38,456 nt of DNA from Agromyces sp. (GTDB lineage: Bacteria; Actinomycetota; Actinomycetes; Actinomycetales; Microbacteriaceae). Below the pieces are notes generated by a model. That model was not told where the DNA came from. It worked only from the letters and a program-made list of their open reading frames with translations, and did no database searches. Positions 1,674 to 36,800 of the stretch are shown piece by piece (within the stretch, counting starts at the first letter, position 1; each line of letters starts with the position of its first letter). The stretch covers positions 1 to 38,456 of the forward strand of contig DASUVU010000068.1 in the NCBI GenBank assembly GCA_036378815.1, in the 5' to 3' direction. The position numbers were made by a program, and so were the translations under genes.

Positions 1674-1720
1674 TTTCGCGCGCGGTCGCGCGCCACGCGG
1701 CATCCGTGCAGCATGTGGGC

Positions 1721-3118
1721 ATGCCTCGAGACCACGCCATCCGCCAGATCCGGTTCAACGCGTTCGACATGAACTGCGTCGCCCACCAGTCATCCGGACT
1801 GTGGCGCCATCCGCTCGACCAGTCGGACCGGTACACCGACCTCTCGTACTGGACCGAGCTCGCGAAGCTCCTCGAACGCGGCACGTTCGACGGCATCTTC
1901 ATCGCCGACGTGCTCGGCACCTACGACGTCTACGGAGGCAGCAACGAGGCGGCGATCCGCAACGGCGCCCAGGTGCCGGTGTCCGACCCGCTGCTGCTCG
2001 TCTCGGCCATGGCCCTCGTGACCGAGCACCTGGGCTTCGGCATCACCGCCGGCACCGCGTACGAGCACCCGTACCCGTTCGCGCGGCGCATGTCGACGCT
2101 CGACCACCTCACCAAGGGCCGCGTGGGCTGGAACGTGGTGACGGGCTACCTTCCGAGCGCGGCGCGCAACATGGGCCACGAGGACCAGCTCGAGCACGAC
2201 GACCGCTACGACCACGCCGACGAGTACCTCGAGGTCCTGTACAAGCTGTGGGAGGGCTCCTGGGAGGACGATGCGGTGCTGCGCGACCGCGAGACGGGCG
2301 TGTTCGCCGATCCGTCGAAGGTGCACGAGATCGGGCACCGGGGAACGCACTTCACGGTCCCCGGCATCCACATCTCCGAGCCGTCACCGCAGCGGTCGCC
2401 GGTCATCTACCAGGCGGGCGCGTCGCCTCGGGGCGTCGCGTTCGCGGCCGAGAACGCCGAGGCGATCTTCGTCGCGGCACCCACCAAGGAGGTGCTGCGC
2501 TCGACCGTGTCGCGGATCCGGGATGCGCTCGAGGCGGCCGGGCGCGACCGGTACTCGGCCCGCATCTACACCCTCGTGACGATCATCACCGACGAGACGC
2601 CCGAGCAGGCTCGGGCGAAGCACGCCGACTTCCTCTCGTATGCCAGCGAGGAGGGTGCGCTCGTCTTCATGAGCGGCTGGATGGGCATCGACCTGTCGAA
2701 GTACGACCTCGACGAGCCGGTCGGGAACGTCGAGTCGAACGCGATCCGCTCGGTGATCGCGAACTACGAGGAATCCGCCCGGAACGGCGAGGTCTTCACC
2801 GTGCGCGACATCGCCCGCGGCGGCGCGATCGGCGGCCTCGGGCCGACCCTCGTCGGCTCGGCCGTCGAGGTGGCCGACGAGCTGCAGGAGTGGGTCGAGT
2901 ACACCGACGTCGACGGATTCAACCTCGCCTACGCCATCACGCCCGGCACCTTCGAGGACATCGTGGAGTTCGTCATCCCCGAGCTGCGTCGCCGGGGCGC
3001 CTACCCGACCGAGTACGCCGAGGGCACCCTGCGGAACAAGCTGCACGGGCGCGGCGACCGCCTGCCCGAGGAGCACCGCGGCGCGCGCCATCGACTCGCC
3101 GGGGTGCGCGAGCGATGA
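1721..3118 (+). CDS. LLM-class flavin-dependent monooxygenase (NtaA/DszA/SnaA family)
   Basis: LLERGTFDGIFIADVLG, TLDHLTKGRVGWNVVT, LWEGSWEDDA, PVIYQAGAS, VDGFNL, VIPELRRRG motifs. ATG 1721 lies 6 nt after CAGCAT. Confidence 0.9.
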   Translation: MPRDHAIRQIRFNAFDMNCVAHQSSGLWRHPLDQSDRYTDLSYWTELAKLLERGTFDGIFIADVLGTYDVYGGSNEAAIRNGAQVPVSDPLLLVSAMALVTEHLGFGITAGTAYEHPYPFARRMSTLDHLTKGRVGWNVVTGYLPSAARNMGHEDQLEHDDRYDHADEYLEVLYKLWEGSWEDDAVLRDRETGVFADPSKVHEIGHRGTHFTVPGIHISEPSPQRSPVIYQAGASPRGVAFAAENAEAIFVAAPTKEVLRSTVSRIRDALEAAGRDRYSARIYTLVTIITDETPEQARAKHADFLSYASEEGALVFMSGWMGIDLSKYDLDEPVGNVESNAIRSVIANYEESARNGEVFTVRDIARGGAIGGLGPTLVGSAVEVADELQEWVEYTDVDGFNLAYAITPGTFEDIVEFVIPELRRRGAYPTEYAEGTLRNKLHGRGDRLPEEHRGARHRLAGVRER

Positions 3119-3642
3119 CGATGGGTGGCGCCGTCACGGCGTGGGAGACGGCGGACGCGCAGAACTTCGCGTCGCTGTTCCGCGCCCAGCCGGGCGGAGT
3201 CGCCGTGATCACCGCCGATGACGGAAGCGGGCCCGTGGCGCTCACGGCGACGAGCGTCTCATCGGTGAGCGTCGCGCCCCCCATGCTCGTGCTGTCGGCC
3301 TCGGATCGCTCATCGGCGGCACCCACGATCGTCGCAGCCGAGACGCTCGTCGTGCACTTCATCGACGTCTGCGACCTGGAGCTCGCCAAGCTCGCCGCGA
3401 CGAGCGGCGCCGACCGCTTCGGCGACCCTCGCCGGTGGTCGAGGCTGCCGACCGGCGAACCGATCTACGACTCCGTCGCCCGAAAGGTGCGAGTCCGCAC
3501 GATCGAGCGGATCCGCGCCGGGGGTGCGACCGTGCTCATCGCCCGGGCACTCGACGTGCACTCGACGATCGCACCCGACTCGCATCCGCTGGTCTACCAC
3601 GATCGCGCGTGGCGCGACCTCGGCGACAGCTACGTGATCTGA
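3115..3642 (+). CDS. Flavin reductase family protein (likely monooxygenase partner)
   Basis: ATGA overlap with upstream stop; FRAQPGGVAVIT, TATSVSSVS..PP, DRF and PLVYHDR motifs. It is the C-terminal part of track ORF 1801..3642. Confidence 0.85.
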   Translation: MTMGGAVTAWETADAQNFASLFRAQPGGVAVITADDGSGPVALTATSVSSVSVAPPMLVLSASDRSSAAPTIVAAETLVVHFIDVCDLELAKLAATSGADRFGDPRRWSRLPTGEPIYDSVARKVRVRTIERIRAGGATVLIARALDVHSTIAPDSHPLVYHDRAWRDLGDSYVI

Positions 3643-3664
3643 GCCGGCCCAGCCGAGGGCCGCC

Positions 3665-5095
3665 TCAATGGACGATGTGCATCGCCCTCGCGGCATCCGT
3701 CAGCGAGGCCGTCAGCGACGGGTAGACCGGGAACGCCTCTGCGAACTCGTCGACGGTCATCCGGTGCTCGACGGCCAGCGAGAGCGGGAGCATGAGCTCC
3801 GACGCCTTCGGCGCGACGATGACGCCGCCGATGATCGCGCCCGATCCGTTCGACGCGAACAGCTTCACGAAGCCCTCTCGAATGCCCATCATCTTGGCGC
3901 GCGGATTCGACGACAGCGGCAGTTCGTAGATCACGCCCGGGACGAGACCCTCCTCGATCTCGCGCTGCGTCCAGCCGACGGTGGCGATCTCGGGCTGCGT
4001 GAAGATGTTCGAGCTGATGTTGCGCTCGGTGGGCGGGTCGACGACGTCACCCATGGCGTGGAACACGGCCGTGCGGCCCTGCATGAAGGCGACGGAGGCG
4101 AGCGGGATGAACGTGGTGCAGTCGCCGGCGGCGTAGATGTTCGGCATCGAGGTGCGGGCCACGCGATTCACGCGGATGTGGCCGCTCTCGTTGAGCTGCA
4201 CGCCGGCCTCCTCGAGTCCGAGGTCGGCCGTGTTCGGCACCGAGCCGACCGCCATGAGGCAGTGGCTGCCGCGCACCTCGCGACCGTCGGTGAGCGTCGC
4301 GACGACCGAGTCGCCGTCGCGCACCACGGAGTCCGCGCGCGACTTCTTCAGCACCTTCATCCCGTTGCGCTTGAAGACCCGCTCGAGCACGGCTGCCGCA
4401 TCCGCGTCCTCCCCGGGCAGCACCTGGTCGCGGCTCGAGATGAGCGTGACCTTCGAGCCGAGTGCGCGGTACGCCGAGGCGAACTCCGCGCCGGTCACGC
4501 CGGACCCGACGACGATGAGGTGCTCGGGAATCTGGGGCAGGTCGTAGAGCTGCGTCCAGGTGAGGATGCGCTCGCCGTCGGGCACCGCGGTGGGCAGCAC
4601 GCGCGGCGACGCGCCGACCGAGATCACCAGCGTGTCGGCCTCGATCCGGTCGAAGTCGGTGCCGCCCTTGCCGGTCGCCACGATGATGGCGTTCGGGCCG
4701 TCGAGCCGGCCCTCACCGTGCACGAGACGGACGCCGGCGTCGAGGAGGTTCGAGCGCATGTCCTCCGACTGCTGCGCGGCGAGCCCCAGCAACCGCTTGT
4801 TCACCGCGGCGAGATTGATCGCGACGTTCGGCTTGATCGGCTTGCCTCCCTCGCCCTTGGCGTAGAACTGCACGCCGAGATCGGCCGCCTCCTTCACCGC
4901 GTTCGAGGCCTCGGCGGTGGCGATGAGCGACTTCGAGGGCACGACGTCGGTCAGCACCGCCGATCCGCCCACTCCGGCACGCTCGATGAGCGTGACGTCG
5001 GCGCCGAGCCGGGCGCCCGAGAGCGCCGCCTCGTATCCCCCGGGTCCTCCTCCGAGGACGGCGATCCGTTGCGTGCGGGCGAACTCGTAGGCCAT
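3665..5095 (-). CDS. lpdA: NAD(P)H-quinone dehydrogenase (LpdA-type flavoprotein disulfide reductase homolog)
   Basis: GGGPGG FAD motif, GSGVTGAEFA, AAGDC; lacks the redox CxxxxC and HPTxxE; lpdA/punA divergent arrangement typical of actinobacteria. Confidence 0.85.
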   Translation of the reverse strand: MAYEFARTQRIAVLGGGPGGYEAALSGARLGADVTLIERAGVGGSAVLTDVVPSKSLIATAEASNAVKEAADLGVQFYAKGEGGKPIKPNVAINLAAVNKRLLGLAAQQSEDMRSNLLDAGVRLVHGEGRLDGPNAIIVATGKGGTDFDRIEADTLVISVGASPRVLPTAVPDGERILTWTQLYDLPQIPEHLIVVGSGVTGAEFASAYRALGSKVTLISSRDQVLPGEDADAAAVLERVFKRNGMKVLKKSRADSVVRDGDSVVATLTDGREVRGSHCLMAVGSVPNTADLGLEEAGVQLNESGHIRVNRVARTSMPNIYAAGDCTTFIPLASVAFMQGRTAVFHAMGDVVDPPTERNISSNIFTQPEIATVGWTQREIEEGLVPGVIYELPLSSNPRAKMMGIREGFVKLFASNGSGAIIGGVIVAPKASELMLPLSLAVEHRMTVDEFAEAFPVYPSLTASLTDAARAMHIVH

Positions 5096-5180
5096 GCTCA
5101 CATTCTGTCGTATCGGTGCCTCGGGCCAGCACGTGAGCGGACGCCTGCGTCGACATCCGCCCCCTCATTAGAGTGGTGGG

Positions 5181-6008
5181 ATGCACGCAGCCAATCCGCT
5201 CGACGACCCCGCCGCGAATCCCTTCGAGATCGCCGCCGACGCGGCATCCGCCATCGCCGAGCTGACCGGTGTCGAGCGCCACGACATCGCGCTCACGCTG
5301 GGCAGCGGCTGGGGCCGCGCGGCCGACGTGATCGGCGAGACGACCCACACCATCGCCGCCGCCGACGTGCCCGGCTTCTCGAAGCCGGCGCTCGAGGGCC
5401 ACGTGGGCACGCTGCGCTCGATCGCCCTGCCGAACGGCAAGCGCGCCCTCGTCATCGGCGCCCGCACGCACTACTACGAGGGCCACGGCGTGCGCCGGGT
5501 CGTGCACTCGGTGCGCACGGCCGCCGCCGCGGGTGCGACCACGATGATCCTCACGAACGGCGCCGGCGGCATCCGCGAGACCTGGACGCCGGGCACGCCG
5601 GTGCTGATCCGCGATCACATCAACCTCACCGCCGACTCGCCGCTCGAGGGCGCGACGTTCGTCGACCTGACCGACCTGTACTCAGCGCGCCTGCGCGCAC
5701 TCGCGCGTTCGATCGAGCCGTCGCTCGACGAGGGCGTCTACGTGCAGTTCCGCGGTCCGCACTACGAGACACCGGCCGAGGTGCAGATGGCCAAGGCCAT
5801 CGGAGGCGACATCGTCGGGATGTCGACGGCGCTCGAGGCCATCGCTGCGCGCCAGGCGGGCATGGAGGTGCTCGGGATGTCGCTCATCACCAATCTCGCC
5901 GCGGGCATCCAGACGACGCCGCTCAGCCACGAGGAGGTCATCGAGGCGGGACGCGCCGCCGAACCGGTGATCTCCGCGCTCCTGGCCAAGATCGTGGCTG
6001 CGCTGTAG
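5181..6008 (+). CDS. punA: Purine-nucleoside phosphorylase
   Basis: LGSGWG, RTHYYEG, LTNGAGG, GPHYETPAE, VGMSTALE, TNLAAG, LSHEEV. Confidence 0.95.
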   Translation: MHAANPLDDPAANPFEIAADAASAIAELTGVERHDIALTLGSGWGRAADVIGETTHTIAAADVPGFSKPALEGHVGTLRSIALPNGKRALVIGARTHYYEGHGVRRVVHSVRTAAAAGATTMILTNGAGGIRETWTPGTPVLIRDHINLTADSPLEGATFVDLTDLYSARLRALARSIEPSLDEGVYVQFRGPHYETPAEVQMAKAIGGDIVGMSTALEAIAARQAGMEVLGMSLITNLAAGIQTTPLSHEEVIEAGRAAEPVISALLAKIVAAL

Positions 6009-6019
6009 GAGGCGGACGG

Positions 6020-7729
6020 ATGTCGCAGACGAACCCCTCCAGCGCAGATCGGCTCGCCCTCGCCGAGGCGTGGATCGCCCAGGATCCCGACCCCGAGACG
6101 CGCGCCGAACTCGCCGCGCTCGTCGAGGGCGCTCGCAGCGGCGACGACGCCGCGACCGCCGAGCTCGCCGACCGGTTCGACACGCGGCTCGCGTTCGGCA
6201 CCGCGGGCCTCCGCGGGGCCATCGCGGCCGGCCCCAACCGCATGAACCGCGTGCTCGTCGCCCAAGCCGCCGCCGGCATCGCCGCCTACCTGCTCGAGCG
6301 CGCGACCGACGGCGAGGCGCCCTCCGTGGTGATCGGGTACGACGGACGCAAGAACTCCGCCGTGTTCGCCCGCGACTCCGCCGAGGTGATGGCGGGCGCA
6401 GGACTGCGAGCGGTGCTCCTTCCCCGGCTCCTGCCGACCCCGGTGCTGGCCTTCGCCGTGCGCCACCTCGACGTGTCGGCGGGCGTCATGGTGACCGCAT
6501 CACACAACCCGCCGAACGACAACGGGTACAAGGTCTACCTCGGCGGCGACGACCGGGGTTCGCAGATCGTGGCACCCGCCGATGCCGAGATCGCCGCCCA
6601 CATCCAGCGGGTGGCCGACTCCACCGCGGTGCCCGACCTGGCCCGCGGCGAGTTCGAGACGGCCGACGAGTCCATCGTCGACGAGTACGTCCGCCGCACC
6701 GCGCTCGTGGCCGACCCACCCACGGCACAGCCCCGCGTCGTCTACACCGCCATGCACGGCGTCGGGTGGGAGACCGCGGCGCGCGTGCTCGCCGCGGCGG
6801 GATTCGACGCCCCGTCGCTCGTCGAGTCGCAGATCTCGCCCGACCCCGCGTTCCCCACGGTGGCCTTCCCGAATCCCGAGGAGCCGGGCGCGATGGACCT
6901 CGCATTCCAGCGCGCCCGCGAGGTCGGGGCGGAGCTCATCCTCGCCAACGACCCAGACGCCGACCGGCTCGCAGTGGCCATTCCCGATGCGGCGGCGCCC
7001 GAGGGCTTCCGGCGCCTGAGCGGCAACGAGGTCGGCCTCCTGCTCGGCTGGCGGAACGCTCGCCGGGTGCAGGCCGGCACCATGGGCGAACGAGGTCCCG
7101 ACGGTACGCTCGCGTGCTCGATCGTCTCGTCCCCCGGGCTCGAGGCCGTCGCCCACGCCTACAATCTCGACTTCGAGGCGACGCTCACGGGCTTCAAGTG
7201 GATCTCGCGGGCGCCCGGGCTCGTGTTCGGGTTCGAGGAGGCCCTCGGCTACCTCGTGAACCCCGACACCGTCCGTGACAAGGACGGGATCTCGGCGGCG
7301 GTGGCGTTCCTGTCGCTGGCCGCCGAGCTGAAGGCCCAGGGTCGAGCACTCGCCGACCACCTCGACGAGTTCGTCGAACGATTCGGATGCTTCGCGTCAT
7401 CCCAGATCTCGCTGCGGGTCACCGACCTGTCGCGGATCGGCGAGATCATGGCGCGGCTGCGTGCCGAGCCGCCCGCCGAGGTCGGCGGCATCCGTGTCGA
7501 GCGCATCGAGGACCTCGCCGACGGGTTCGGCGCGCTTCCGCCGTCCGACGTGCTGCGGATCGTGCTCGAGGGCGGCGGCCGGGTCATGGTCCGTCCGAGC
7601 GGGACGGAACCGAAGCTCAAGGTCTACATCGATGCGGTCGCCGATCAGGGCACGGTCGCCGAGCGGCGCGCCGCGGCATCCGCTGCCATCGCCTCGCTCG
7701 ATGCGGGCATGCGCGACCTCACCGCCTGA
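6020..7729 (+). CDS. Phospho-sugar mutase (alpha-D-phosphohexomutase family; possible phosphopentomutase)
   Basis: FGTAGLRG, TASHNP phosphoserine loop, DPDADR metal loop, GFEEALG, RPSGTEPKLKVY; AGGAGG RBS before ATG 6020. Confidence 0.92.
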   Translation: MSQTNPSSADRLALAEAWIAQDPDPETRAELAALVEGARSGDDAATAELADRFDTRLAFGTAGLRGAIAAGPNRMNRVLVAQAAAGIAAYLLERATDGEAPSVVIGYDGRKNSAVFARDSAEVMAGAGLRAVLLPRLLPTPVLAFAVRHLDVSAGVMVTASHNPPNDNGYKVYLGGDDRGSQIVAPADAEIAAHIQRVADSTAVPDLARGEFETADESIVDEYVRRTALVADPPTAQPRVVYTAMHGVGWETAARVLAAAGFDAPSLVESQISPDPAFPTVAFPNPEEPGAMDLAFQRAREVGAELILANDPDADRLAVAIPDAAAPEGFRRLSGNEVGLLLGWRNARRVQAGTMGERGPDGTLACSIVSSPGLEAVAHAYNLDFEATLTGFKWISRAPGLVFGFEEALGYLVNPDTVRDKDGISAAVAFLSLAAELKAQGRALADHLDEFVERFGCFASSQISLRVTDLSRIGEIMARLRAEPPAEVGGIRVERIEDLADGFGALPPSDVLRIVLEGGGRVMVRPSGTEPKLKVYIDAVADQGTVAERRAAASAAIASLDAGMRDLTA

Positions 7730-7749
7730 CGGCGACGTCGCCGACGCCC

Positions 7750-11177: not shown

Positions 11178-11202
11178 CGGATGCCCCGAAGCGGGGCATC
11201 CG
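11178..11202. repeat. Intergenic hairpin built from inverted GGATGCC-motif copies
   Basis: CGGATGCCCCG-AAG-CGGGGCATCCG, 11-bp perfect stem directly after the permease stop codon. Confidence 0.75.
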
Positions 11203-12493: not shown

Positions 12494-13869
12494 TTCGCCT
12501 CCACCTCCTTCTTGGCGGCCTTGCGAGGTCGTTTCGGCTTCGCGTCGGGATCGGGCAGGCGGAAGATCGTGCGAACGAGCGGCGGCGCAGCGATGAAGAG
12601 GACGATGAGGGACTGCACGACGAGCACGATCTCGACCGGCACGCCCTCGGCCGCCTGCATCGAGAAGCCGCCCGCCTTGAAGGCGCCGAAGAGGATGCCG
12701 GCGGCGAAGGTGCCCCACGGCGTCGAACGACCGAGCAGGGCCACCGTGATCGCGTCGAAGCCGATTCCCGCGTCGATGCCGGCCGTGAAGCCGGTGGTGA
12801 CCGTTCCGAGCACCTGGCTCACGCCGGCGAGCCCCAGCAGCGCCCCGCTGATGAGCATCGCGTAGATGTACATGCCCTTGACGTTGACACCGGCCACCCG
12901 AGCTGCGTTGGGATTGATGCCGACCGCGCGGAACTTGAATCCGAGGCTCGACCGATTGAGGATCCACCACACGAGGATCGTCGCGGCCACCGCGAGGAGG
13001 AACCCGAGATGCAGGTTGAACTGGGGTCCGAGCAGCGCGGGGAAGATGGCGGTCTCCTTCATCGCCGGGGTCTTCGGGTTGGACGAGCCTGGCGCCTGGA
13101 GGAGGCCCGGCGTGCGCAGGAGCCACGACACGAGGTAGAAGGCGACGTAGTTGAGCATGATCGTGACGATCACCTCGTGCGCGCCGGTACGCGCCTTCAG
13201 CACGCCCGCGATACCCGCCCAGAGCGCGCCGCCGATGAGGCCGCCGACCAGGGCGACGAGCATGTGCAGGCCCCAGGGCAGGTCGAAGCCGAAGGCGATC
13301 CATCCCGCGACGGATGCCGCGATGAGCATCTGGCCCCGACCACCGATGTTGAACATGCCCACGCGGAACGCGAGGGCGACGCCGAGGCCTCCGGCGATGA
13401 GGGGGGTCGCGAAGGTGAGCGTCTCGGTGAGCGGCCGGATGCCGGCCACGAACGTGTCGCGTCGGAAGTTGTAGATCGAGCCCTGGAAGAGGGCCGAGTA
13501 CGCACCCGCCACGGAGTCCCAGATGGCGCCGAGCATGTCAGCGGGGCGCGAGAAGAAGTACACGCTCGTCTCCTGCACGCGCTCATCGGTGAACGCGATC
13601 ATGACCGCGCCCACGATCAGCGCGAGGATGACGGAGAGCACCGAGATGAGGGCGTTGCCCGTGGTGATCTGGCGCAGCATGGTGTGCCACCTCGACGGCG
13701 GCGGGCCCTCTGGCCCGGCCGGGCCGCCGGGACCGGTGGCCGTCGCGCGGGCGTCGTCGGTCGCGGCGCCGGTCGCGGGCGAGGCCGCTCCGGGCTCCTC
13801 GATCGCGACGTCGGGGTCGAGGTTCGTCGCTCGGGAGGCGTCGCCCCTCGGCTGGGTGGGGTCGCTCAT
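12490..13869 (-). CDS. ABC transporter permease (nucleoside/BMP-type, NupB-like)
   Basis: FRVGMFNIGGRGQ, GAHEVIVTIMLNY, GFDAITVALLG. Confidence 0.9.
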   Translation of the reverse strand: MSDPTQPRGDASRATNLDPDVAIEEPGAASPATGAATDDARATATGPGGPAGPEGPPPSRWHTMLRQITTGNALISVLSVILALIVGAVMIAFTDERVQETSVYFFSRPADMLGAIWDSVAGAYSALFQGSIYNFRRDTFVAGIRPLTETLTFATPLIAGGLGVALAFRVGMFNIGGRGQMLIAASVAGWIAFGFDLPWGLHMLVALVGGLIGGALWAGIAGVLKARTGAHEVIVTIMLNYVAFYLVSWLLRTPGLLQAPGSSNPKTPAMKETAIFPALLGPQFNLHLGFLLAVAATILVWWILNRSSLGFKFRAVGINPNAARVAGVNVKGMYIYAMLISGALLGLAGVSQVLGTVTTGFTAGIDAGIGFDAITVALLGRSTPWGTFAAGILFGAFKAGGFSMQAAEGVPVEIVLVVQSLIVLFIAAPPLVRTIFRLPDPDAKPKRPRKAAKKEVEAK

Positions 13870-16810: not shown

Positions 16811-17872
16811 TCAGGGAGCCGACGGCGACTCGACGACGATCTCGCCCGAGATGATCGCCTGTCGCAGTCCTTCGATCTCGCCGTCGAGAGCGGGCGACAC
16901 GAGCGGAGCGAGGTCGTGGTACGGCGCGATCTCGACGCCGCCGTTCTCGAGCGTGCCGACGTAGGGCTCGTTCGAGAACGATCCGTCCTGCACCGCGCCG
17001 ACGATCTCGACCATCGCGTCCTGGGTGTTCTTCAGCACGCTCGTGAGCAGCACGGGCCGGAACTCGGCCGCGAGCGACTCGTAGCCGTCGCTGTCGACCC
17101 AGATCACCGAGACACCGCCGCGCTCGAGGGCCGCGGCCGTGGCGCCCTCGCCGACCTGGCCGGCGACCGGCAGGATGACGTCGGCGCCCTGGTCGATGAG
17201 GCTCTCGGACAGCGCCTTCCCCTTGTTGATGTCCTCGAAGTCGCCGGTGAACGCTCCGTCCTGCGCCGCCTTGTCCCAGCCGAGCACGCGAACCGCGGTG
17301 CCGTGCACCTCGTTGTACTTGGCGACGCCGTCGACGAATCCGTCCATGAACAGCGTCACGGGCGGCTGGTTGCCGCCGCCGAAGGTCGCGACGACCCCGG
17401 TCTTCGAGACGCCGGCGGCCAGGTAGCCGGCAAGGTACGTCGCCTGCGCGGTGTCGAAGATCACCGGCTTCACGTTGTCGGCCTCGACCACCTCGTCGAC
17501 GATGGCGAACGCGAGGTCGGGGTTGGACTCAGCCTGGGACAGGGTCGCGTCGGCGAGCTCGAAGCCGACCGTGACGATCAGCTCGCAGCCGGATTCGACG
17601 GCCTGCGCCACGTTCGGGGCGAGGTCGGTCTCGCCGGTCGAGACGATGGCCTCGGCCTCGACCCCGAGCTCGTCCTCGGCCTGCTGGAGGCCCTCCCAGC
17701 TCGCCTGGTTGAACGAGCGGTCCTCGAGGCCGCCCGAGTTCGTCACCATCCGAACGCACGAGTCGCTCGCCGCCTCGGTCGAGCCGCCCTCGGGCGCGGG
17801 TCCGCAACCCACGAGCATGACGGATGCCGCGACGAGCACCGTTCCGTAACCGAACCACCGACGCACCGACAT
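16811..17872 (-). CDS. Second BMP-family substrate-binding lipoprotein (paralog)
   Basis: Lipobox MLVGC; GGLEDRSFNQ, KPVIFDTAQATYLAGYLAA, FMDGF, GTLENGGVEIAPYHD; clearly homologous to 15547..16644. Confidence 0.9.
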   Translation of the reverse strand: MSVRRWFGYGTVLVAASVMLVGCGPAPEGGSTEAASDSCVRMVTNSGGLEDRSFNQASWEGLQQAEDELGVEAEAIVSTGETDLAPNVAQAVESGCELIVTVGFELADATLSQAESNPDLAFAIVDEVVEADNVKPVIFDTAQATYLAGYLAAGVSKTGVVATFGGGNQPPVTLFMDGFVDGVAKYNEVHGTAVRVLGWDKAAQDGAFTGDFEDINKGKALSESLIDQGADVILPVAGQVGEGATAAALERGGVSVIWVDSDGYESLAAEFRPVLLTSVLKNTQDAMVEIVGAVQDGSFSNEPYVGTLENGGVEIAPYHDLAPLVSPALDGEIEGLRQAIISGEIVVESPSAP

Positions 17873-19038: not shown

Positions 19039-19217
19039 GCGTCCGAGGATAGCCGTCGAGCCTCCGCGGCATCCGTTCGCTTTCGTCTGTCTCGACGTCG
19101 AGAGAGTTCGACCGCCCGTCGCCGCGGCGGCCGGAACCCGGCGATAGACTCTCATCGGGCTGCGCGCCCTCGTGCCCGGAAGTCACGGGCGATCCACACA
19201 GCCAGGGAGGGTTGTTC

Positions 19218-21921: not shown

Positions 21922-22677
21922 GTGTCCACCGCAATCCTCGAGGCGCAGCCCGACACGGCGATCCGCTCCTTCACCGTCACGTTCCTCATCCGCCGGTTCG
22001 ACCCCGACGTCGACACCGAGCCTCGCTGGGAGGACTTCGACGTCGAGATGTTCCCGACCGACCGCGTGCTCGACGCGCTGCACAAGATCAAGTGGGAACA
22101 GGACGGCTCGCTGACCTTCCGCCGCTCGTGCGCACACGGCATCTGCGGCTCCGACGCGATGCGCATCAACGGGCGCAACCGCCTGGCCTGCAAGACCCTC
22201 ATCAAGGACCTCGACATCTCGAAGCCCATCTACGTCGAGGCCATCAAGGGCCTGCCCCTCGAGAAGGACCTCGTCGTCGACATGGAGCCGTTCTTCGCGA
22301 GCTACCGCGAGGTGCAGCCGTTCCTCATCGCCAACTCGAAGCCCGAGCCCGGCAAGGAGCGCATCCAGTCGATCGCCAAGCGCGAGATCTTCGACGACAC
22401 GACGAAGTGCATCCTCTGCGCGGCATGCACCTCGAGCTGCCCCGTGTTCTGGACCGACGGGCAGTACTTCGGGCCGGCGGCGATCGTCAACGCGCACCGG
22501 TTCATCTTCGACGATCGCGACGATGCGGCATCCGTTCGCCTCGACATCCTGAACGACAAGGAGGGCGTGTGGCGCTGCCGTACGACCTTCAACTGCACCG
22601 ACGCGTGCCCGCGCGGCATCGAGGTCACGAAGGCCATCTCCGAGGTGAAGCAGGCGATCCTGCGCGGCCAGCCCTGA
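21922..22677 (+). CDS. sdhB: Succinate dehydrogenase iron-sulfur subunit
   Basis: RRSCAHGICGSD, CILCAACTSSCP, CRTTFNCTDACP. Confidence 0.97.
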   Translation: MSTAILEAQPDTAIRSFTVTFLIRRFDPDVDTEPRWEDFDVEMFPTDRVLDALHKIKWEQDGSLTFRRSCAHGICGSDAMRINGRNRLACKTLIKDLDISKPIYVEAIKGLPLEKDLVVDMEPFFASYREVQPFLIANSKPEPGKERIQSIAKREIFDDTTKCILCAACTSSCPVFWTDGQYFGPAAIVNAHRFIFDDRDDAASVRLDILNDKEGVWRCRTTFNCTDACPRGIEVTKAISEVKQAILRGQP

Positions 22678-22684: not shown

Positions 22685-22716
22685 CGGATGCCGCGGCATC
22701 CGGTGACGCGGATGCC
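22685..22716. repeat. 18-bp palindrome CGGATGCCGCGGCATCCG plus a third variant copy after sdhB
   Basis: Two overlapping inverted copies of the 10-mer at 22685-22702 and CGGATGCC at 22709-22716. Confidence 0.8.
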
Positions 22717-25882: not shown

Positions 25883-26461
25883 GTGCGCCCCGTGGCACTG
25901 CGCACGGCGCGTCTCGTGCTCGACCTGCCGACGCTCGACGACGCCGATCTCGTGACGCACTACTGCCAGGACCCGGTGTTCGAGCGGTACCTCACCACAC
26001 CGTGGCCGTACACTCGCGCCGACGCCGAGGAGTTCCTCGGCACGCACGTTCCCGAGGCCTGGGCCACGGGCGCCGAGCTCACGTGGGCGGTCAGGGATGC
26101 CGAGGGCGGTCCCCTCCTCGGCGTGATCAGCGTTCGCGAGACCCAACACGAGCTTGGGTTCTGGATGGGTGAGGAGCACCGCGGCACGGGGTTCATGAGC
26201 GAGGCGGCGACGGCGGTCGTCGAGTGGACGCTCGGGGGCGGCATCCGCGGCGCCGGCAGCGTGCTCTGGCGGGCCGTCGAGGGCAACGTGGCGTCGGCGA
26301 AGGTCGCCCGCGCCGCCGGCTTCCGGCGGATCCAGCCCGACCGCCCCACCGTGCCCACCCGCGACGGCGGCACTCTTCCGGCTTGGTACGGCGTGCGTGA
26401 AGCGACGCCCGACCCGAGGGCGCGCGACAGCTGGAACGACATCCTGGGCGCCCACGCCTGA
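25883..26461 (+). CDS. GNAT acetyltransferase (RimJ/RimL-like)
   Basis: LRTARLVL, ELGFW...HRGTGFMSEA (motif A), GNVASAKVARAAGF; GTG immediately after the trpS stop. Confidence 0.85.
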   Translation: MRPVALRTARLVLDLPTLDDADLVTHYCQDPVFERYLTTPWPYTRADAEEFLGTHVPEAWATGAELTWAVRDAEGGPLLGVISVRETQHELGFWMGEEHRGTGFMSEAATAVVEWTLGGGIRGAGSVLWRAVEGNVASAKVARAAGFRRIQPDRPTVPTRDGGTLPAWYGVREATPDPRARDSWNDILGAHA

Positions 26462-26665: not shown

Positions 26666-27904
26666 GTGATCGACACCACCCCCGCTGCCGGGCGCACTGC
26701 CATCCACCCGGCCCCCGACGACATTCCCGATCTCGCGGTCGCAGGGGCGACGCCTTCGAAGCGACCGGGTGGTCGCGGCATCCGGCTGATCATCATCGCG
26801 CTCGCCGCGATCGGCGCGCTGGCGGGGGGCTACCTCGTCCATCACGCCCTGTCGACCGAGCTCTATCGCGGTGCCTTCGAACAGCTCGACGAGGCGAATG
26901 CCGAGGTGATCGCGAACGCGGCCGACTACCAGCGGTCGCTGCGCACTTCGGGTGTCGCGGCCAAGCAGGCCGAGGCGCTCGAGGGCGCCATCGTCGCCGG
27001 ATACGCGCGGCCACAGGATGTTGAGGCGTTCCTCGCCGCAAGTGACGCGCTCGCGGCGGCCCTCGACGACGCGGCATCCGCCGAGCCTGCCGAGATCGCC
27101 GAATTCGCCGCACCGGCGGCGGTCGACTCGCCCGCGTGGGACAGGTACGCGGATGCGGCGACGATGCTCGAGCTCGCGACGGCTCGCGACGACGAGGCCG
27201 CCATGTTCGAGGACGCCGCCGATCCGCTGTTCGAGGCGAGGGCCGAGAACCAGGAGGCGGTGGAGTCCCTGTTCGCGGGGGCGCTGGAGATCGCGGCGGC
27301 CGAGCTGCAGGCGAACTCATCGGCGACCCAGCGCACGCGGATCCCCGTGCAGAAGATCGTCGAGGGCACGGCCGACGACACGGGCATGCCCTCCCATTCC
27401 GCGGCGTCGTTCACGTCGCTCGTGCAGGCCATCGACGCGTTGCGGGCCTCGCATGCGGCCGAGGAGGCGCGCAAGCTGGAGCCCGACTACGCGGTGCGCG
27501 CCGAGATCGAGGCGTTCGCCCGTTCCATCGCGGCGGGCGTCGCACTCGACTTCGTGTGGGCATACGAGGTCAACGGCCTGTCCAGCGACGAGTGGTACTC
27601 GGGGACGGCCGAGTTCTGGCCGACCGACGGCGGCTGGGGCGAGATCAACCTCACGCACAGCGTCTCGGACTACTGGGCCGACGACCCCAACGCCAAGGCG
27701 GTGGTCGTGCACGAGGTCGGCCACACCCAGGTGGTGCGGCCTGCGTGCGAGCCGCTGTTCACCGGCCCCGAGTTCGGCGGCGACCACGAGATGTGGGCCA
27801 CCGCATGGGCGATCGGCATGGGTCACGACCTGCCCGGTGCGGGAATCGAGGCCTACGGGCGACCGACCGACGCCCAGATCGCCGTCGCGTCGCAGTGCCG
27901 CTGA
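26666..27904 (+). CDS. Membrane-anchored hypothetical protein with C-terminal HExxH (putative zinc metallopeptidase) domain
   Basis: One N-terminal TM (LIIIALAAIGALAGGYLV), Ala/Glu-rich helical middle, VVVHEVGH followed by EMWATAWA. Start uncertain. Confidence 0.6.
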   Translation: MIDTTPAAGRTAIHPAPDDIPDLAVAGATPSKRPGGRGIRLIIIALAAIGALAGGYLVHHALSTELYRGAFEQLDEANAEVIANAADYQRSLRTSGVAAKQAEALEGAIVAGYARPQDVEAFLAASDALAAALDDAASAEPAEIAEFAAPAAVDSPAWDRYADAATMLELATARDDEAAMFEDAADPLFEARAENQEAVESLFAGALEIAAAELQANSSATQRTRIPVQKIVEGTADDTGMPSHSAASFTSLVQAIDALRASHAAEEARKLEPDYAVRAEIEAFARSIAAGVALDFVWAYEVNGLSSDEWYSGTAEFWPTDGGWGEINLTHSVSDYWADDPNAKAVVVHEVGHTQVVRPACEPLFTGPEFGGDHEMWATAWAIGMGHDLPGAGIEAYGRPTDAQIAVASQCR

Positions 27905-28179: not shown

Positions 28180-29286
28180 ATGACGAGCGACGTGCACACG
28201 ATGACGGATGCCGCCACGATGCGCAGAGCCCTCGAACTCGCGACCCGTGGTCCGTCGAAGGGCGTGAATCCCCGAGTGGGGTGCGTCATCGTCTCCTCGC
28301 ACGGAGACGTGCTGGCCGAGGGCTGGCACCGCGGAGCGGGCACCGCGCACGCCGAGGTCGACGCGCTCTCGCGCCTCGCGCCCGGCGCGGCCGAAGGTGC
28401 CACCGTCGTCGTGACGCTCGAGCCCTGCAACCACACGGGTCGCACGGGCCCCTGCGCCCAGGCCCTCATCGAAGCCGGGGTCGCACGAGTCGTGTATGCG
28501 GTCGCAGATCCCGGCGCCGACTCGGCGGGCGGTGCCGATCGGCTGCGCGCGGCGGGCGTCGAGGTCACCCCCGGCGTGCTGGGCGACGAGGCCGAGGCAT
28601 TCCTCGGCGACTGGCTCTTCGCGGCGCGTCAGGGGCGGCCGCGGGTGACGGTCAAGTGGGCCGCGAGCCTCGACGGACGGGCCGCGGCATCCGACGGTTC
28701 GAGCCGGTGGATCACCGGTCCTGCCGCGCGCGCCGACGTGCATCGCCGGCGTGCCGCCGCCGACGCGATCGCGGTCGGCACCGGCACGATCTTCGCCGAC
28801 GACCCCGCCCTCACCGCGCGCGATCCGGGTGGGGAGTTCTTCGACTCGCAGCCGGTTCCGGTCGTCTTCGGTCGCCGCCCGGTTCCGGCGGATGCCGCGG
28901 TCACGCGTCATCCGCACGCCCCGATCCTGCTCGAGGGCGCCGATCTCGTTCGCGACCTCGGGGAACTGCAGCAGCGCGGCATCCGCTCGCTCTTCATCGA
29001 GGGCGGGCCGACGCTCGCCAGCGCGTTCATCTCCGCCGGCCTCGTCGACGAGCTGCTCGTGTACGTCGCGCCCATGCTGCTCGGCGGGTCGCGACTCGCG
29101 ATCGGCGACCTCGGCGTCGCGAACATCGCAGACGCCCGGCACTTCGACTTCGCCGCCATCGAGCGGCTCGGCGACGACCTCCTCGTCGTCGCTCACCCAG
29201 TCTCGAGCCGCGCTGCGCGCTCCTCGACCAGCACAACAGAAGGACGCGCTGCGCGCTCCTCGACCGACAGAACCGAAGGGAACTGA
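28180..29286 (+). CDS. ribD: Bifunctional riboflavin deaminase/reductase RibD
   Basis: NPRVGC, HAEVDA, TLEPCNHTGRTGPC, KWAASLDG, SRWIT, IEGGP. Confidence 0.95.
   Translation: MTSDVHTMTDAATMRRALELATRGPSKGVNPRVGCVIVSSHGDVLAEGWHRGAGTAHAEVDALSRLAPGAAEGATVVVTLEPCNHTGRTGPCAQALIEAGVARVVYAVADPGADSAGGADRLRAAGVEVTPGVLGDEAEAFLGDWLFAARQGRPRVTVKWAASLDGRAAASDGSSRWITGPAARADVHRRRAAADAIAVGTGTIFADDPALTARDPGGEFFDSQPVPVVFGRRPVPADAAVTRHPHAPILLEGADLVRDLGELQQRGIRSLFIEGGPTLASAFISAGLVDELLVYVAPMLLGGSRLAIGDLGVANIADARHFDFAAIERLGDDLLVVAHPVSSRAARSSTSTTEGRAARSSTDRTEGN
29209..29280 (+). repeat. 36-bp tandem duplication at the ribD 3' end
   Basis: CGCGCTGCGCGCTCCTCGACC identical at 29209-29229 and 29245-29265, followed by similar tails (AGCACAACAGAAGGA / GACAGAACCGAAGGG). 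Confidence 0.85.
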
Positions 29287-30023: not shown

Positions 30024-31354
30024 GCCTCGCCACGATCCCCGAAGTGCTCGACGCGCTGCGCGCAGGCAAGCCCGTCATCGTCGCCGACGACGAGGCCCGA
30101 GAGAACGAGGGCGACGCGATCATGGCGGCCGAGTTCGCCACGCAGGAGTGGATCGCGTGGATGGTGCGCCACACGAGCGGCTTCCTCTGCGCTCCCATGC
30201 CGGCCGAGGTCGCCGACCGCCTCGAACTCCCGCTGATGACCGAGCGGAACGAAGACGTCCGAGGAACGGCGTACACCATCTCGGTCGACGCCGCCGACCG
30301 GAACTCGACGGGCATCAGCGCCGCCGAGCGCGCCCACACCCTGCGCGTCCTGGCCGACCCCGACTCCGGTCCCGAGCACCTCATCCGCCCGGGCCACGTG
30401 CTGCCACTGCGCGCGGTCGACGGCGGCGTGCGGGAGCGCGCCGGGCACACCGAGGCCGCCGTCGACCTGCTCCGCCTCGCGGGCCTCTCCCCCGTCGGGG
30501 TGATCGCCGAGATCGTCGAGGACGACGGCGAGATGATGCGCCTGCCGGGGCTGATCGAGCTCGGCGAGCGCGCGGGACTCCCGGTCACGACCGTGGCGGC
30601 GCTCATCGACTGGCTTCGCGAGCGGCATGGCGGGTTGGACCTCGCGACGCCGACCGGTGCGACCGCCTCGGTACCCGAGTCGTCCCTCGTGGCGTTCGAA
30701 GTCGAGACCGAGCTGCCGACCGAGCACGGCGTCTTCCGGGTGCGCGCCTACCGCGACCGCCGTACCGGCGCCGACCACGTCGCGATCATCGCGGGCGAGC
30801 CGGCGGCGGATCCGCGCGGCGCGATCGTCCGCGTGCACTCCGAGTGCCTCACCGGTGAGGCCTTCGGATCGCTCAAGTGCGAGTGCGGGCCCCAGCTCGA
30901 CGCCGCGCTCGAGGCGATCCAGGACGAGGGCGGCGTGGTCATCTACCTGCGCGGCCACGAGGGCCGGGGCATCGGCCTCATCAACAAGCTGCGTGCATAC
31001 CGACTGCAGGAGGACGGCCTCGACACGCTCGACGCCAACCTCGCGCTCGGGCTCCCGATCGACGCCCGCGACTACAGCGCCGCGACCGCGATCCTCGCGG
31101 ACCTCGGCATCGACACGGTGCGGCTGCTCACGAACAACCCCGAGAAGGTCCGCCAGCTCGAGGCCCGCGGCATCCGTGTCTCCGAGCGCGTGCCGCTGGT
31201 CGTCGGCGTCGGAGCCGGCAACGCCGGATACCTCCAGACCAAGCGCGCCCGCATGGGGCACGCGATCGACGATCGGCAACTGGCCGACACCTCGACGGAG
31301 CTCAGCGGAACGGCCGCTGATCCCGAGACCATCCTGGAAGGACACGCATCGTGA
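30020..31354 (+). CDS. ribBA: Bifunctional DHBP synthase / GTP cyclohydrolase II
   Basis: [31 protein letters not shown]; RVHSECLTG...KCECG, EGRGIGL.NK, LLTNNP.K. Confidence 0.95.
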
Positions 31355-31821: not shown

Positions 31822-31909
31822 GCCCGCGGCATCCGTCGTTCGATTGATTCCGGCCCGACCCCCGGCCGTCGGCTGGCGCCGAGGCTCTCGCGGCTCCTAG
31901 GCTCGGGGC

Positions 31910-32266
31910 ATGGACATCCTTCGCATCATCCTCCTGATCCTGCACTTCGTCGGCCTCTCGATGCTCCTCGGGGGCTTCCTCGTGCAGGCGAAGGCCGTCG
32001 CACAGGGCAAGGGCACAGTGGTGCGGGCGATGATCGACGGCGCGCTCACCCAGTTGATCACCGGGCTCCTCCTCGTCGCGACCATCGAGATGGGCGACCT
32101 GGGCGACGTGAACAACGTGAAGATCGGCGTGAAACTCGTCATCGCGATCGTCATCACGGTGCTCGTCTTCATGTACCGCAAGAGGACCCCGGCGCCGTCG
32201 TGGGCGCTGTGGACGATCGGCGGGCTGACGCTCGCGAACGTCATCATCGCGGTCGCGTGGCGATGA
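31910..32266 (+). CDS. Small integral membrane protein (about 4 TM), function unknown
   Basis: Four hydrophobic segments, LHFVG and KIGVKL motifs, strong codon bias, TAGGCT-N6-ATG. Confidence 0.75.
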   Translation: MDILRIILLILHFVGLSMLLGGFLVQAKAVAQGKGTVVRAMIDGALTQLITGLLLVATIEMGDLGDVNNVKIGVKLVIAIVITVLVFMYRKRTPAPSWALWTIGGLTLANVIIAVAWR

Positions 32267-32291
32267 GGGGGTCGGGCATCCGGTTTCCGGA

Positions 32292-33840: not shown

Positions 33841-33861
33841 GGATCGGACCGCTCGCCCACG

Positions 33862-33913
33862 AGGGCGGATGCAGGGCGGATGCCGCGACCGACGGGTTCG
33901 CGGCATCCGCCCT
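33862..33913 (+). terminator. 16-bp stem-loop after the MFS gene made from inverted 10-mer copies
   Basis: AGGGCGGATGCCGCGA (33873-33888) pairs with TCGCGGCATCCGCCCT (33898-33913); AGGGCGGATGC is also directly repeated at 33862. Confidence 0.75.
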
Positions 33914-34058
33914 CGCGCCGTCATGATCGAGATCCTCGAGACGTCTCGAGACCCCTTCTCGACGTGCGGCCCCCGGCGTAGCATGGCCCGCGACAGGGGC
34001 CGCCGAGTCATCCGCCGGCAGTCGTCGACGCTCGGCCGCCCGGGACGGCGAGCGAGTG

Positions 34059-34484: not shown

Positions 34485-34494
34485 GTCGCCGGAT

Positions 34495-34848
34495 TCAGGC
34501 GTCGGCGACGCTCCAGCGTGAGCCGCCGAGTGCCAGCACGCCGTACACCTCGTGCAGCGCGACGGGCTCGCCGGGGCGAAGCGCGCCTCGGAATGCGTCG
34601 TGGTGCCAGACGCGGTGCACGTCCCCGCCATCGAATTCGGCGAGGGTGGCGAAACCGTCGTCGTCGACATTCGCGACGATCGCGTCGATCCACCTGCTCG
34701 GGGTGGCCGCCGCGAGCCGCTCCTGCATCGGGTGCACGCCGTGTCCGGGGCGTCGACTCTCGCACGTCGCCGCCGTCTCGCAGCCGCGCATGCCCATGAC
34801 CTCGCCCGTGCGGGGCTCGGTGGCGGCGTGCGGCTCGCGGTACGGCAT
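34495..34848 (-). CDS. Hypothetical protein (117 aa) with Cys/His motifs
   Basis: GAGGAG RBS before ATG 34848; C-terminal part of track ORF 34495..35556; fills the gap between csp-like gene and psuG. Confidence 0.65.
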   Translation of the reverse strand: MPYREPHAATEPRTGEVMGMRGCETAATCESRRPGHGVHPMQERLAAATPSRWIDAIVANVDDDGFATLAEFDGGDVHRVWHHDAFRGALRPGEPVALHEVYGVLALGGSRWSVADA

Positions 34849-34999
34849 GAGGACTCCTCGGTCTCGGATGCCGCAACGATACGCGCGTGGCATCCGGATG
34901 TCGCTGCGGCACGTCACACATCGAAACACTCGCCGACGCCTTGGTCGTGGCCTCGACCCGGGCAGCGGGCCAACCCGGACGCCGTCGTAGCATGACCTC

Positions 35000-35917
35000 A
35001 TGCAGACCACTCCGCCCGCGATCCGGGTCTCCGACGAGGTGCGCTCCGCGGTCGACGAGGGTCGTCCGGTCCTCGCACTCGAGTCCACGATCCTGACCCA
35101 CGGGCTGCCCCGGCCCCGCAACCTCGAGGTGGCGCTCACGTCCGAAGCCCAGGTGCGCGACACCGGCGTGGTCCCGGCGACGATCGGCGTCGTCGACGGC
35201 GTGCCGGTCGTCGGGCTCACTCGGGCGGAGATCGAGCGGCTCTGCACGTCGGCCGAGGTCGTGAAGGTCAGCGTGCGCGACCTCCCGATCGTGCGAGCGC
35301 AACGCAGGGACGGCGGCACCACGGTGGCCGCCACCGCGTGGCTGGCGCACCGCTGCGGCATCCGGGTCATGTCCACCGGGGGCCTCGGCGGCGTGCACCG
35401 CGGCGCCGCCGAGACGTTCGACGAGTCGGCCGACCTCACGACCCTCGCCGCGACGCCCATCACGCTGGTGAGCGCGGGGGTGAAGTCCATCCTCGACATC
35501 GGCGCGACGCTCGAACGCCTCGAGACCCTGAACATCCCGGTGGTGGGCTTCCGCACGAACCGGTACCCGGGCTTCTACGTCGCCGACTCGGGGTTCGGCC
35601 TCGACTACCGGATCGAGAGCCCGGCGGATGCCGCAGAGCTCGCGCGAGCCCGCGACGAGCTGGGTCTCCCGGGCGCCGTGCTCGTCGCCAACCCCGTGGA
35701 CGCGGCGAAGCAGCTCGACCCCGAGTTCCACGACCGCGTCCTCGGGGAGGCGCTGGCTGCGGCATCCGACGCTGGAATCAGCGGCCACGACACGACCCCG
35801 TTCCTGCTCGACCACGTGCAGCGGGCCACGGGCGGACGGAGCCTCGAGGTGAACCTCGAGGTGTACCGGGGCAACGTCGCCCTCGGCGCGGAGATCGCAC
35901 GTGCCGTCGCCGCGTGA
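35000..35917 (+). CDS. psuG: Pseudouridine-5'-phosphate glycosidase
   Basis: ALESTILTHGLP.P.N, PATIG, GTTVAAT, TGGLGGVHRG, DESADL, GVKSILDI..TLERLET, TPFLL, SLEVN. Confidence 0.93.
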   Translation: MQTTPPAIRVSDEVRSAVDEGRPVLALESTILTHGLPRPRNLEVALTSEAQVRDTGVVPATIGVVDGVPVVGLTRAEIERLCTSAEVVKVSVRDLPIVRAQRRDGGTTVAATAWLAHRCGIRVMSTGGLGGVHRGAAETFDESADLTTLAATPITLVSAGVKSILDIGATLERLETLNIPVVGFRTNRYPGFYVADSGFGLDYRIESPADAAELARARDELGLPGAVLVANPVDAAKQLDPEFHDRVLGEALAAASDAGISGHDTTPFLLDHVQRATGGRSLEVNLEVYRGNVALGAEIARAVAA

Positions 35918-35921
35918 CCCG

Positions 35922-36800
35922 GTGCTGGCCGTGGTCGGCGACCTCGTCGAGGACATCGTGGTGTGGGCGGGCGAACCGGTCCGCTCCGCCACCGACACTG
36001 CCGCACGGGTCTTCCGAGCCCGCGGCGGCAGCGGCGCGAACGTGGCAGCCCTGGCCGCTCCCCACGTCTCGGCCCGGTTCATCGGCAGGGTCGGGGCTGA
36101 TGCCGCGGGCGAAGCGCTCGTCGCCGACCTCGCCGCGCTCGGGGTCGACGTCCGGGCGCAGCGCGACGGTCGCACCGGAACGGTCGTGCTGCTCGTCGAC
36201 GCGGAGGGCGAACGCACGATGTTCCCCGACCGCGCCGCCGCGGCCCGGCTCGAACGGGTCGACGACGCCTGGCTCGACGACGTCGCGTGGCTGCACCTCC
36301 CCGCCTACGGGTTCGAGCTGGAGCCGATGCGGAGCGAGATCGTGCGGCTCGCCGGGGTCGCGCACTCGGCCGGCGCGCGCGTGTCGGTGGATGCGTCGTC
36401 GACCGGCCTGCTCGCCGCGCTCGGCGTCGACCGTGCGCTCGGGCTGATCCGACGCATGGCTCCCGACGTGCTCTTCGCCAACGAGGACGAGGCCGCGCAG
36501 CTCGCGCTCACGGGTGGTGGCACGGTCGCGGCATCCGTCGCCCCCGTCGTGGTGATCAAGCACGGACCGCTGCCGACGGACGTCGTCGACGCGGGCGAGC
36601 TGGTCGCGCGCGTGGACGTGCCGCCCGTCGCCGACATCCGCGACCTCACCGGGGCGGGCGATGCGTTCGCGGCCGGGTTCCTCGCGGCCACCCTCGATGG
36701 GGCGGATGCCGCGACCGCGTGTGTCGCCGGGCACGCCCTCGCGGCATCCGTGCTCGCGAACCCCGGCGCGCACGCGACGCCGACCACCACCCCGCGCTGA
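35922..36800 (+). CDS. PfkB/ribokinase-family kinase (probable pseudouridine kinase by context)
   Basis: GGSGANVA, GRVGAD..G, FANEDEA, DLTGAGDAFAAG; start may be 35901 or 35922. Confidence 0.88.
   Translation: MLAVVGDLVEDIVVWAGEPVRSATDTAARVFRARGGSGANVAALAAPHVSARFIGRVGADAAGEALVADLAALGVDVRAQRDGRTGTVVLLVDAEGERTMFPDRAAAARLERVDDAWLDDVAWLHLPAYGFELEPMRSEIVRLAGVAHSAGARVSVDASSTGLLAALGVDRALGLIRRMAPDVLFANEDEAAQLALTGGGTVAASVAPVVVIKHGPLPTDVVDAGELVARVDVPPVADIRDLTGAGDAFAAGFLAATLDGADAATACVAGHALAASVLANPGAHATPTTTPR

Follow-up and report, generated by a model that had tools for sequence, protein, structure and literature searches.

A genome-wide, non-polar 10-mer of Agromyces as a candidate DNA uptake sequence of the Microbacteriaceae

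The 10-mer GCGGCATCCG recurs throughout a 38,456-nucleotide stretch of Agromyces sp. DNA (contig DASUVU010000068.1 of assembly GCA_036378815.1; this whole stretch is called the window below), and we found that it is the commonest 10-mer of the genome to which the window belongs. The original prediction, made from the window alone, had proposed a genome-wide, protein-recognised signal similar to the DNA uptake sequence (DUS) of Neisseriaceae, the uptake signal sequence (USS) of Pasteurellaceae or the highly iterated palindrome HIP1 of cyanobacteria, and every genomic test run agrees with a non-polar signal of this type. We give about an even chance (roughly 0.5) to the reading that the word is a DNA uptake sequence, which would be kept abundant by the drive of uptake-biased transformation, as for DUS and USS. 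To our knowledge, only Neisseriaceae and Pasteurellaceae are established cases of sequence-specific DNA uptake, while cyanobacterial HIP1 is a proposed one.

Abundance, shape and maintenance of the word

The genome containing the window (G000; 2.63 Mb in 407 contigs, 69% complete) carries 1,656 copies of the word on both strands, which corresponds to 0.63 per kb or about one copy per 1.6 kb. Its assignment to Agromyces agrees with the best named matches of a G000 methyltransferase, which are from Agromyces at up to 89% identity, and the SdhB cluster has members named Microbacterium, Leifsonia and Agromyces. The word is thus not confined to the window, and its number exceeds the expectation of order-0, order-1 and order-5 Markov models 62-, 34- and 4.7-fold, respectively. 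Within the window we recovered all 30 copies that had been counted before, 21 on the plus and nine on the minus strand, each at exactly the same position. The predicted excess over chance also held, but the expectations had been set too low: dinucleotide shuffles contained a mean of 0.79 copies (largest value 5) rather than about 0.4, and for the 8-mer core GGCATCCG, with its 43 copies, 4.3 rather than about 3 are expected.

In G000, 1,262 copies (76%) lie in coding sequences, 374 are intergenic and 20 fall on gene edges, while the density between genes is 2.5 times that within genes. The coding copies exceed all codon nulls, namely 94-107 copies after synonymous shuffling (12-fold), 222-245 under a dicodon model (5.5-fold) and 31-35 for codon order, so that the enrichment does not vanish when codon pairs are preserved. 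The main frames, GCG GCA TCC (489 copies) and GAT GCC GC (514 copies), make use of rare codons, since GCA accounts for 7.6% of alanine and GAT for 17% of aspartate codons. This had been noticed in the window, where independent gene calls now place 22 of the 30 copies within genes, in the frames Ala-Ala-Ser (AAS), Asp-Ala-Ala (DAA) and Gly-Ile-Arg (GIR); 15 of these 22 use GCA or GAT.

Single changes to the 11-mer CGCGGCATCCG inside CATCC reduced the abundance to 0.26-1.6 times the null, while changes in the flanks left it 2-19 times enriched, apart from one G>C change at 1.0. Because core substitutions lose the enrichment and flank substitutions keep it, the motif can be written (C)GNGRCATCCG, in which CATCC is a strict core and the flanks are tolerant; the degenerate 9-mer GNGRCATCC has 3,406 sites in G000. 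Bare GGATG is enriched only 1.3-fold, no palindromic 6-mer of substantial count is enriched in this genome, and the word itself is non-palindromic. A second class of 7-mers, A-R-NNN-Y-T, was set aside by reasoning as an amino-acid pattern (E/Q/K-x-L/F). As a separate observation, G000 is depleted of CTAG (0.28-fold) and of TACGTA, AAGCTT and AACGTT (0.2- to 0.3-fold).

These data bear on a group of simple explanations: the word might be a remnant of repetitive extragenic palindromic (REP) elements or of miniature inverted-repeat transposable elements (MITE), a polar signal such as Chi or the FtsK orienting polar sequences (KOPS), a restriction site or an artefact of codon context. The higher intergenic density and the occurrence of hairpins would suit a repeat or an artefact, and the word contains both GGATG and GCATC, which are targets of type IIS restriction-modification systems. 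However, beyond about 12 bases there is little information except for a slight surplus of A/T immediately 3' of the core, so that no REP or MITE body is present; together with the share of copies in coding sequences, this speaks against such a family as the source. The survival of the enrichment under codon nulls speaks against codon context. With the evidence on polarity, insertion and restriction given below, we consider these readings largely refuted and leave them only a very small probability.

Polarity was determined in two complete congeners, G018 and G017, from 20 segments of 20 kb each, with the terminus taken opposite dnaA; two segments near the origin or terminus were dropped per genome and 18 of 20 used. 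The word occurred 114 and 109 times on the leading and lagging strand in G018 and 65 and 62 times in G017, hence without replichore bias, whereas GGGGGAG in the same segments was strongly polar (58/5 and 43/3). Chi-type sites and KOPS or the architecture imparting sequences (AIMS) are polar words that are read by DNA-processing proteins. The Agromyces word shares with them that it is short and over-represented in the chromosome, but as its strand counts are even while GGGGGAG is polar, it is not Chi- or KOPS-like, and the replichore comparison raised by the original prediction comes out on the unbiased, DUS-like side. Apparent runs of plus-strand matches in G198, G255, G182 and G102 were rejected as a sign of polarity, being an artefact of forward matches listed first; in G182 the plus-strand matches are scattered across the whole chromosome. 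GGGGGAG / CGGGGGAG is itself polar and enriched family-wide, was also seen in G160, G174, G075, G078, G180 and G031, and is likely a KOPS-type word that orients FtsK.

Gaps between sites are exponentially distributed, as in a Poisson process (mean 652 bp, standard deviation 652 bp; chi2/df 1.13 over 205 contigs). The origin-proximal half is 1.3 times denser in the word, with 255 versus 193 copies in G018 (p 0.004) and 187 versus 141 in G017 (p 0.013). Genes at least 90% identical to their G000 orthologs have a 35-45% lower density, those of the top codon-score quintile have about half the density, and contigs with polysaccharide and catabolic genes are mildly depleted.

Comparison of G000 with its orthologs, 207 pairs from G018 and 199 from G017, showed conservation at synonymous sites. 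Where the amino acids are unchanged the core was retained at 97 of 132 and 95 of 152 sites, compared with 46-47% identity for control 7-mers. GAT persisted in 36 of 68 and 39 of 71 cases inside the motif versus 55 of 355 and 88 of 400 outside it (53-55% vs 15-22%), and GCA at 25-34% of motif sites versus 7-12% elsewhere; for genera of another dialect, the GAT figures are 5 of 34 inside and 43 of 230 outside. Alignment gaps at the sites were few (about 10% vs 6-7% for controls in the congeners), so copies arise mainly by substitution and insertion is not the main route, which also argues against REP or MITE remnants. The proteome is shifted as well: AAS, DAA, RHP and RMP are inflated 1.63-, 1.67-, 2.8- and 2.6-fold, with reversed peptides at about 1, compared with 0.85, 1.10, 1.5 and 1.7 in pooled other genera. 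The motif codons encode 47% of AAS (as GCA TCC) and 48% of DAA tripeptides, versus 2 of 152 and 12 of 217 in other genera.

A drive acting inside the cell would predict the same non-polar, random and substitution-born pattern: a recombination or repair enzyme, acting in end resection, strand exchange or mismatch cleavage, could favour the strand that bears the word, and gene conversion in the course of repair or transformation would then fix it, while the cell surface would show no bias. The origin-proximal excess is compatible with any process whose extent follows copy number, and no surface reader was found (see below). On the other hand, Chi-type sites are polar and the word is not, C-to-T variants show no specific loss (0.7- to 1.2-fold) of the kind that Vsr-like repair would give, the word brings in A/T in spite of the GC bias, and no candidate enzyme was identified. 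We consider such an enzyme unlikely, although it is the most probable of the alternatives to uptake.

Dialects within and beyond the family

All 24 congeners searched are enriched in the word, with 376-2,802 copies, compared with 6-73 in 16 genomes of other families. Over 250 Microbacteriaceae genomes the copy number varies widely; GCATCCG reaches at least three times its reversed control in 57 of 94 genera (one genome per genus). From each of ten low-count lineages 50-130 kb were sampled, and in seven of them another top word was found, namely GGATGCG (G147), CGGATCC (G078, G276), GCAGGATC (G137), TCCGGATC (G180), GCGGATC (G095) or GGAGGCG, the last in G163 and G160 (two genera, counted as one word class). 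GGA is common to all these dialect words. The other three sampled lineages, G174, G075 and genus g49, had no clear word. A switch occurs even within genus g50, where G157 uses GGATGCC and G276 GGATCC, and users of the GGATC dialect are not grouped by trees of ComEC or holA.

Outside the family, most genomes sampled from families f2, f8, f12 and f13 have the sister word GGACGSCG at 3-6 times the count of its reversed control (1.07 times in G000), and it reaches up to 2.3 per kb in these and part of family f14. In 147 kb from three of those families, GGACGNCG words rank first, at about twice a strict codon null, and they are not enriched between genes; in G027, from another family, no word was seen. 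The GGACGNCG words may belong to the same system or may reflect codon context, and we treat them as a lead only.

The word is rare in six Microbacterium phages, with nine copies in 278 kb. These phages neither gain nor avoid the core, which is present at 1.3-1.5 times the null, as is a control word at 1.4 times, yet they avoid GGATCC (5 vs 43 expected, 0.12-fold). Hence, a site of restriction is not what the phages indicate for the word itself. FokI and AlwI domains were not found either: FokI_D1 was over the cut-off in none of five genomes, and its three weak matches (E 0.015-0.35), all at the start of one helicase-like Walker A open reading frame (ORF), were discarded as noise; the AlwI domain was found in none of 12 genomes in a search that had no positive control. 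The avoidance of GGATCC, a hexamer that is enriched in G078 and G276, suggests a GGATCC-cutting defence among the hosts. A Cnuibacter plasmid had no copy in 50 kb of its 215 kb, which is uninformative as the dialect of the host is not established.

The word could also be the binding site of an abundant protein that organises the chromosome or controls its topology, with direct selection keeping many sites. The sites are indeed scattered evenly, non-polar and maintained, and the mild gradient towards the origin and the few copies in phages would suit such a protein. However, it would be difficult to sustain selection on some 3,400 degenerate sites individually, at a strength that alters amino acids; moreover, the spacing follows a Poisson process rather than being even, and dialect switches as fast as that between G157 and G276 would be costly for an essential protein. 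We therefore assign this explanation a low probability.

Comparison with known uptake sequences and the search for a reader

In its genomic traits the word works like the DUS of Neisseriaceae, although we do not file it as a member of that class. DUS are likewise non-palindromic sequences of about 10-12 bp, which occur in thousands of copies on both strands and inside genes, form inverted and overlapping pairs and vary in family-wide dialects around a short invariant core (PMC3630211). They are read by the minor pilin ComP (PMC3630211). Agromyces, by contrast, is a monoderm with Tad pili in which no ComP-like reader was found. Its word has more degenerate flanks and a GGA core, whereas the core of DUS is CTG. 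Short critical cores have been described for USS (PMC3458573) as well as for DUS (PMC3630211), and with USS the word shares both such a core and tolerant flanks (PMC3458573). USS roughly double the tripeptides they encode (PMC2817400), and the inflation of matching tripeptides in Agromyces is of the same kind; a lower density in the most conserved genes is a further common trait. Unlike USS, the word has no T-rich flanking tracts but only the weak A/T excess 3' of its core.

The cyanobacterial HIP1 (GCGATCGC) is also highly iterated, conserved and non-polar, enters coding frames, extends over a wide clade and has a proposed link to DNA uptake; it raises transformation, an effect that depends on methylation (PMC13756078). 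It is, however, a palindromic octamer with quasi-periodic spacing, whereas the Agromyces word is non-palindromic, has Poisson spacing and is tracked by none of the methyltransferase families searched. The last point matters for the alternative that a conserved methyltransferase marks the word, which methyl-directed repair or methylation-dependent uptake would then maintain. A candidate is the beta-class adenine methyltransferase at G000:C69:3109-4008, which has a DPPF motif and M.RsrI as its closest solved relative. PF01555 was matched in 45 of 45 genomes, and of 18 translated loci 17 proved orthologous (65-85% identity), so that the enzyme is conserved across the Microbacteriaceae and two other families; the GGA shared by all dialects and the methylation-dependent gain in transformation by HIP1 (PMC13756078) point in the same direction. 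Yet the enzyme hardly differs among genomes of different dialects and those lacking a word, occurs in the word-less G027 and was not found in the word-bearing G147 and G025; no restriction partner was recognised beside it at the G000 locus, and PMC6329791 gave no help with its target. The D12, C5 and N6_Mtase families, each present in one of five motif-rich genomes, were rejected as a cause like the beta-class enzyme, and neither the non-palindromic word nor the slight enrichment of bare GGATG fits well. A methyltransferase thus appears quite improbable as the cause, and the suggestion of a link to type IIS or other methylation found no support.

An uptake sequence would need a transformation machinery, and its genes are indeed present: comEC in 54 of 54 genomes, dprA in five of five, comEA next to comEC in 23 of 24 aligned comEC loci, while 44 of 45 genomes had a CpaF-type ATPase above the cut-off. 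There are also two conserved tad loci; in G000 one was found on contig C105, lacking the ATPase at a contig break, and the second was not found. Transformation of Micrococcus luteus requires a gene set of this type (PMC4322843). If the word is an uptake sequence, its reader would likely be a protein of the Tad-pilus/ComEA/ComEC machinery. Microbacteriaceae would take up DNA of their kin, fragments matching the word better would be taken up or integrated more often, and recombination would fix those mutations that bring a site closer to the word, as far as the protein allows, which amounts to a molecular drive; changes in the reader would give rise to dialects.

Several observations weigh against an uptake sequence. 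We know of no monoderm with sequence-specific uptake, and no report of natural transformation in Microbacteriaceae was found in the literature. The competence genes are universal in the family, including the word-less G174, G075 and genus g49 and small aquatic genomes, and hence do not discriminate; therefore the uptake model is permitted but not proven by them. No ComP-like reader was found: the minor pilins of the Tad loci are small and for the most part acidic, and a search of six motif-rich congeners (G005, G012, G016, G017, G018 and G023) gave no PilB/PilT pili among the matches listed, which leave aside 47 weaker ones. The association of an arginine in the ComEA hairpin with the word is weak (Mann-Whitney p 0.011, uncorrected for the tree). 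Moreover, the main Agromyces frames use rare codons, whereas those of USS follow preferred codons, and USS are depleted in genes without homologs (PMC2817400), whereas the word is not depleted in genes lacking a G000 homolog (1.12 and 0.90 per kb, with G000 being only 69% complete).

Candidate readers were pursued at the level of single residues. The ComEA hairpin arginine, a perfect match in 11 genomes, was dropped as the reader after the family-wide association proved weak (37 of 54 vs 20 of 40 genera, Fisher p 0.09); it is also present in genera depleted of the word. Columns of ComEC that separate the dialects are located in variable regions and were rejected, while holA gave none, and no convincing residue that co-varies with dialect was seen in ComEA, ComEC or Tad pilins (7-24 sequences).

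Two features of the machinery are recorded for their own sake. Many Agromyces, G018 and G017 among them, have an additional, longer tad-like locus, their third (with flp, tadE, tadG and cpaB-like genes), which was not found in several other motif-rich genera. G180 has a comEA-type pattern (G180:C1:303465) about 40 kb from comEC, a short comEC frame of 574 amino acids and extra dprA fragments, which makes a rearranged competence locus possible.

Copies in the window and meaning for the family

The window is an ordinary housekeeping stretch with genes for nucleoside metabolism, sdh, trpS and riboflavin synthesis. On the plus strand, the first copy (1697..1706) lies just before or overlaps the start of a luciferase-like monooxygenase ORF, and the next (3690..3699) is antisense in the oxidoreductase gene 3665-5095(-), within ACG GAT GCC GCG (TDAA). 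Two plus-strand copies each are found in a nucleoside phosphorylase gene (5241..5250 as GCG GCA TCC, AAS; 5566..5575 as GGC ATC CGC, GIR) and in a phosphohexomutase gene (7485..7494, GIR; 7673..7682, AAS). Minus-strand copies follow in the ORF 12490-13869(-) of an ABC operon (13311..13320, AAS) and in the gene 16811-17872(-) of a BMP-type binding protein (17821..17830, AAS). A plus-strand copy at 19066..19075 is intergenic, between the divergent nucleotidyltransferase gene and sdh operon, and sdhB carries the word at 22525..22534(+) as GAT GCG GCA TCC GTT, just as noted before.

Further downstream, plus-strand copies occur in a GNAT acetyltransferase gene (26238..26247, GIR) and in the unnamed ORF 26666-27904 (26775..26784, GIR; 27071..27080, AAS). 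The gene ribD holds four, at 28205..28214 and 28889..28898 on the minus strand (both DAA) and at 28684..28693 (AAS) and 28976..28985 (GIR) on the plus strand, and ribBA one (31167..31176, +, GIR). The plus-strand copy 31826..31835 is intergenic, 4 nt past the stop of ORF 31351-31821. An Indigoidine_A-family gene contains 35355..35364(+, GIR), 35625..35634(-, DAA) and 35759..35768(+, AAS), and a PfkB kinase gene 36528..36537(+, AAS). Apart from the word, ORF 26666-27904, with its two copies, and the ORFs 31910-32266 and 34495-34848 have no Pfam match.

The remaining copies are paired. Inverted 8-mer cores (CGGATGCCCC...GGGGCATCCG) form a hairpin at 11178..11202, just past the stop of the ABC permease gene 11204-12451(-), with a fold z of -2.8. 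Directly past the sdhB stop (22685..22716), the 10-mers at 22685(-) and 22693(+) overlap in the palindrome CGGATGCCGCGGCATCCG, with an 8-mer core at 22709. Past the stop of an MFS transporter, the 10-mers at 33877(-) and 33900(+) build a perfect 16-bp inverted repeat (33873..33913), a terminator-like hairpin with a fold z of -6.6. In the intergenic stretch 34865..34896 the 10-mer at 34865(-) is paired with an 8-mer core at 34889(+), and an inverted pair of 10-mers (36703, -, DAA; 36741, +, AAS) with 19-nt arms lies within the PfkB kinase gene, at its 3' end (36703..36750). Of the five window pairs, three have a better fold than shuffled sequences, with z between -2.8 and -6.6, whereas the other two, at z -1.3 and -1.5, have none. 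In the genome, close inverted pairs are in excess: a pair is present in 66 of 1,120 regions after stop codons, compared with about 14 expected by a rough calculation, and in 53 of the 334 such regions with a helix of at least 9 bp. The word is thus reused in predicted hairpins 3' of stop codons. USS form inverted pairs or hairpins past stop codons too, and the preferred orientation of such hairpins is a trait in common (PMC1852404).

Literature on the Microbacteriaceae and its genera contained no description of the word; the coverage was without supplements and most subscription journals, where k-mer or REBASE tables could hold it. A term search of PMC5217419 gave nothing on motifs or competence. 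Going beyond the uptake reading of the Agromyces word, we put forward, more tentatively than that reading itself, that the Microbacteriaceae, and to a weaker degree several further families of the order, may represent a third independent DNA-uptake-sequence system and the first in Gram-positives. A receptor of the Tad/ComEA/ComEC machinery would recognise a word built around GGA, which takes the form GGATGYC in Agromyces, GGACGNCG in the other families and GGATC or GGAGG in dialects elsewhere, and the resulting drive would have rewritten codons and tripeptides across genera and would set barriers to gene flow.

If this is true, high-GC Gram-positives would have undergone natural transformation over the long term, and Tad-type machinery would carry a DNA reader of a new kind. 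The motif matrix, the dialects and the switch between G157 and G276 within one genus make the uptake claim directly testable. Moreover, the word could raise the efficiency of transformation in Agromyces and Microbacterium, which are hard to engineer. If a repair enzyme or a nucleoid protein is responsible instead, the word would still reveal an as yet unknown force, which shapes about half of the codon choices for AAS and DAA.

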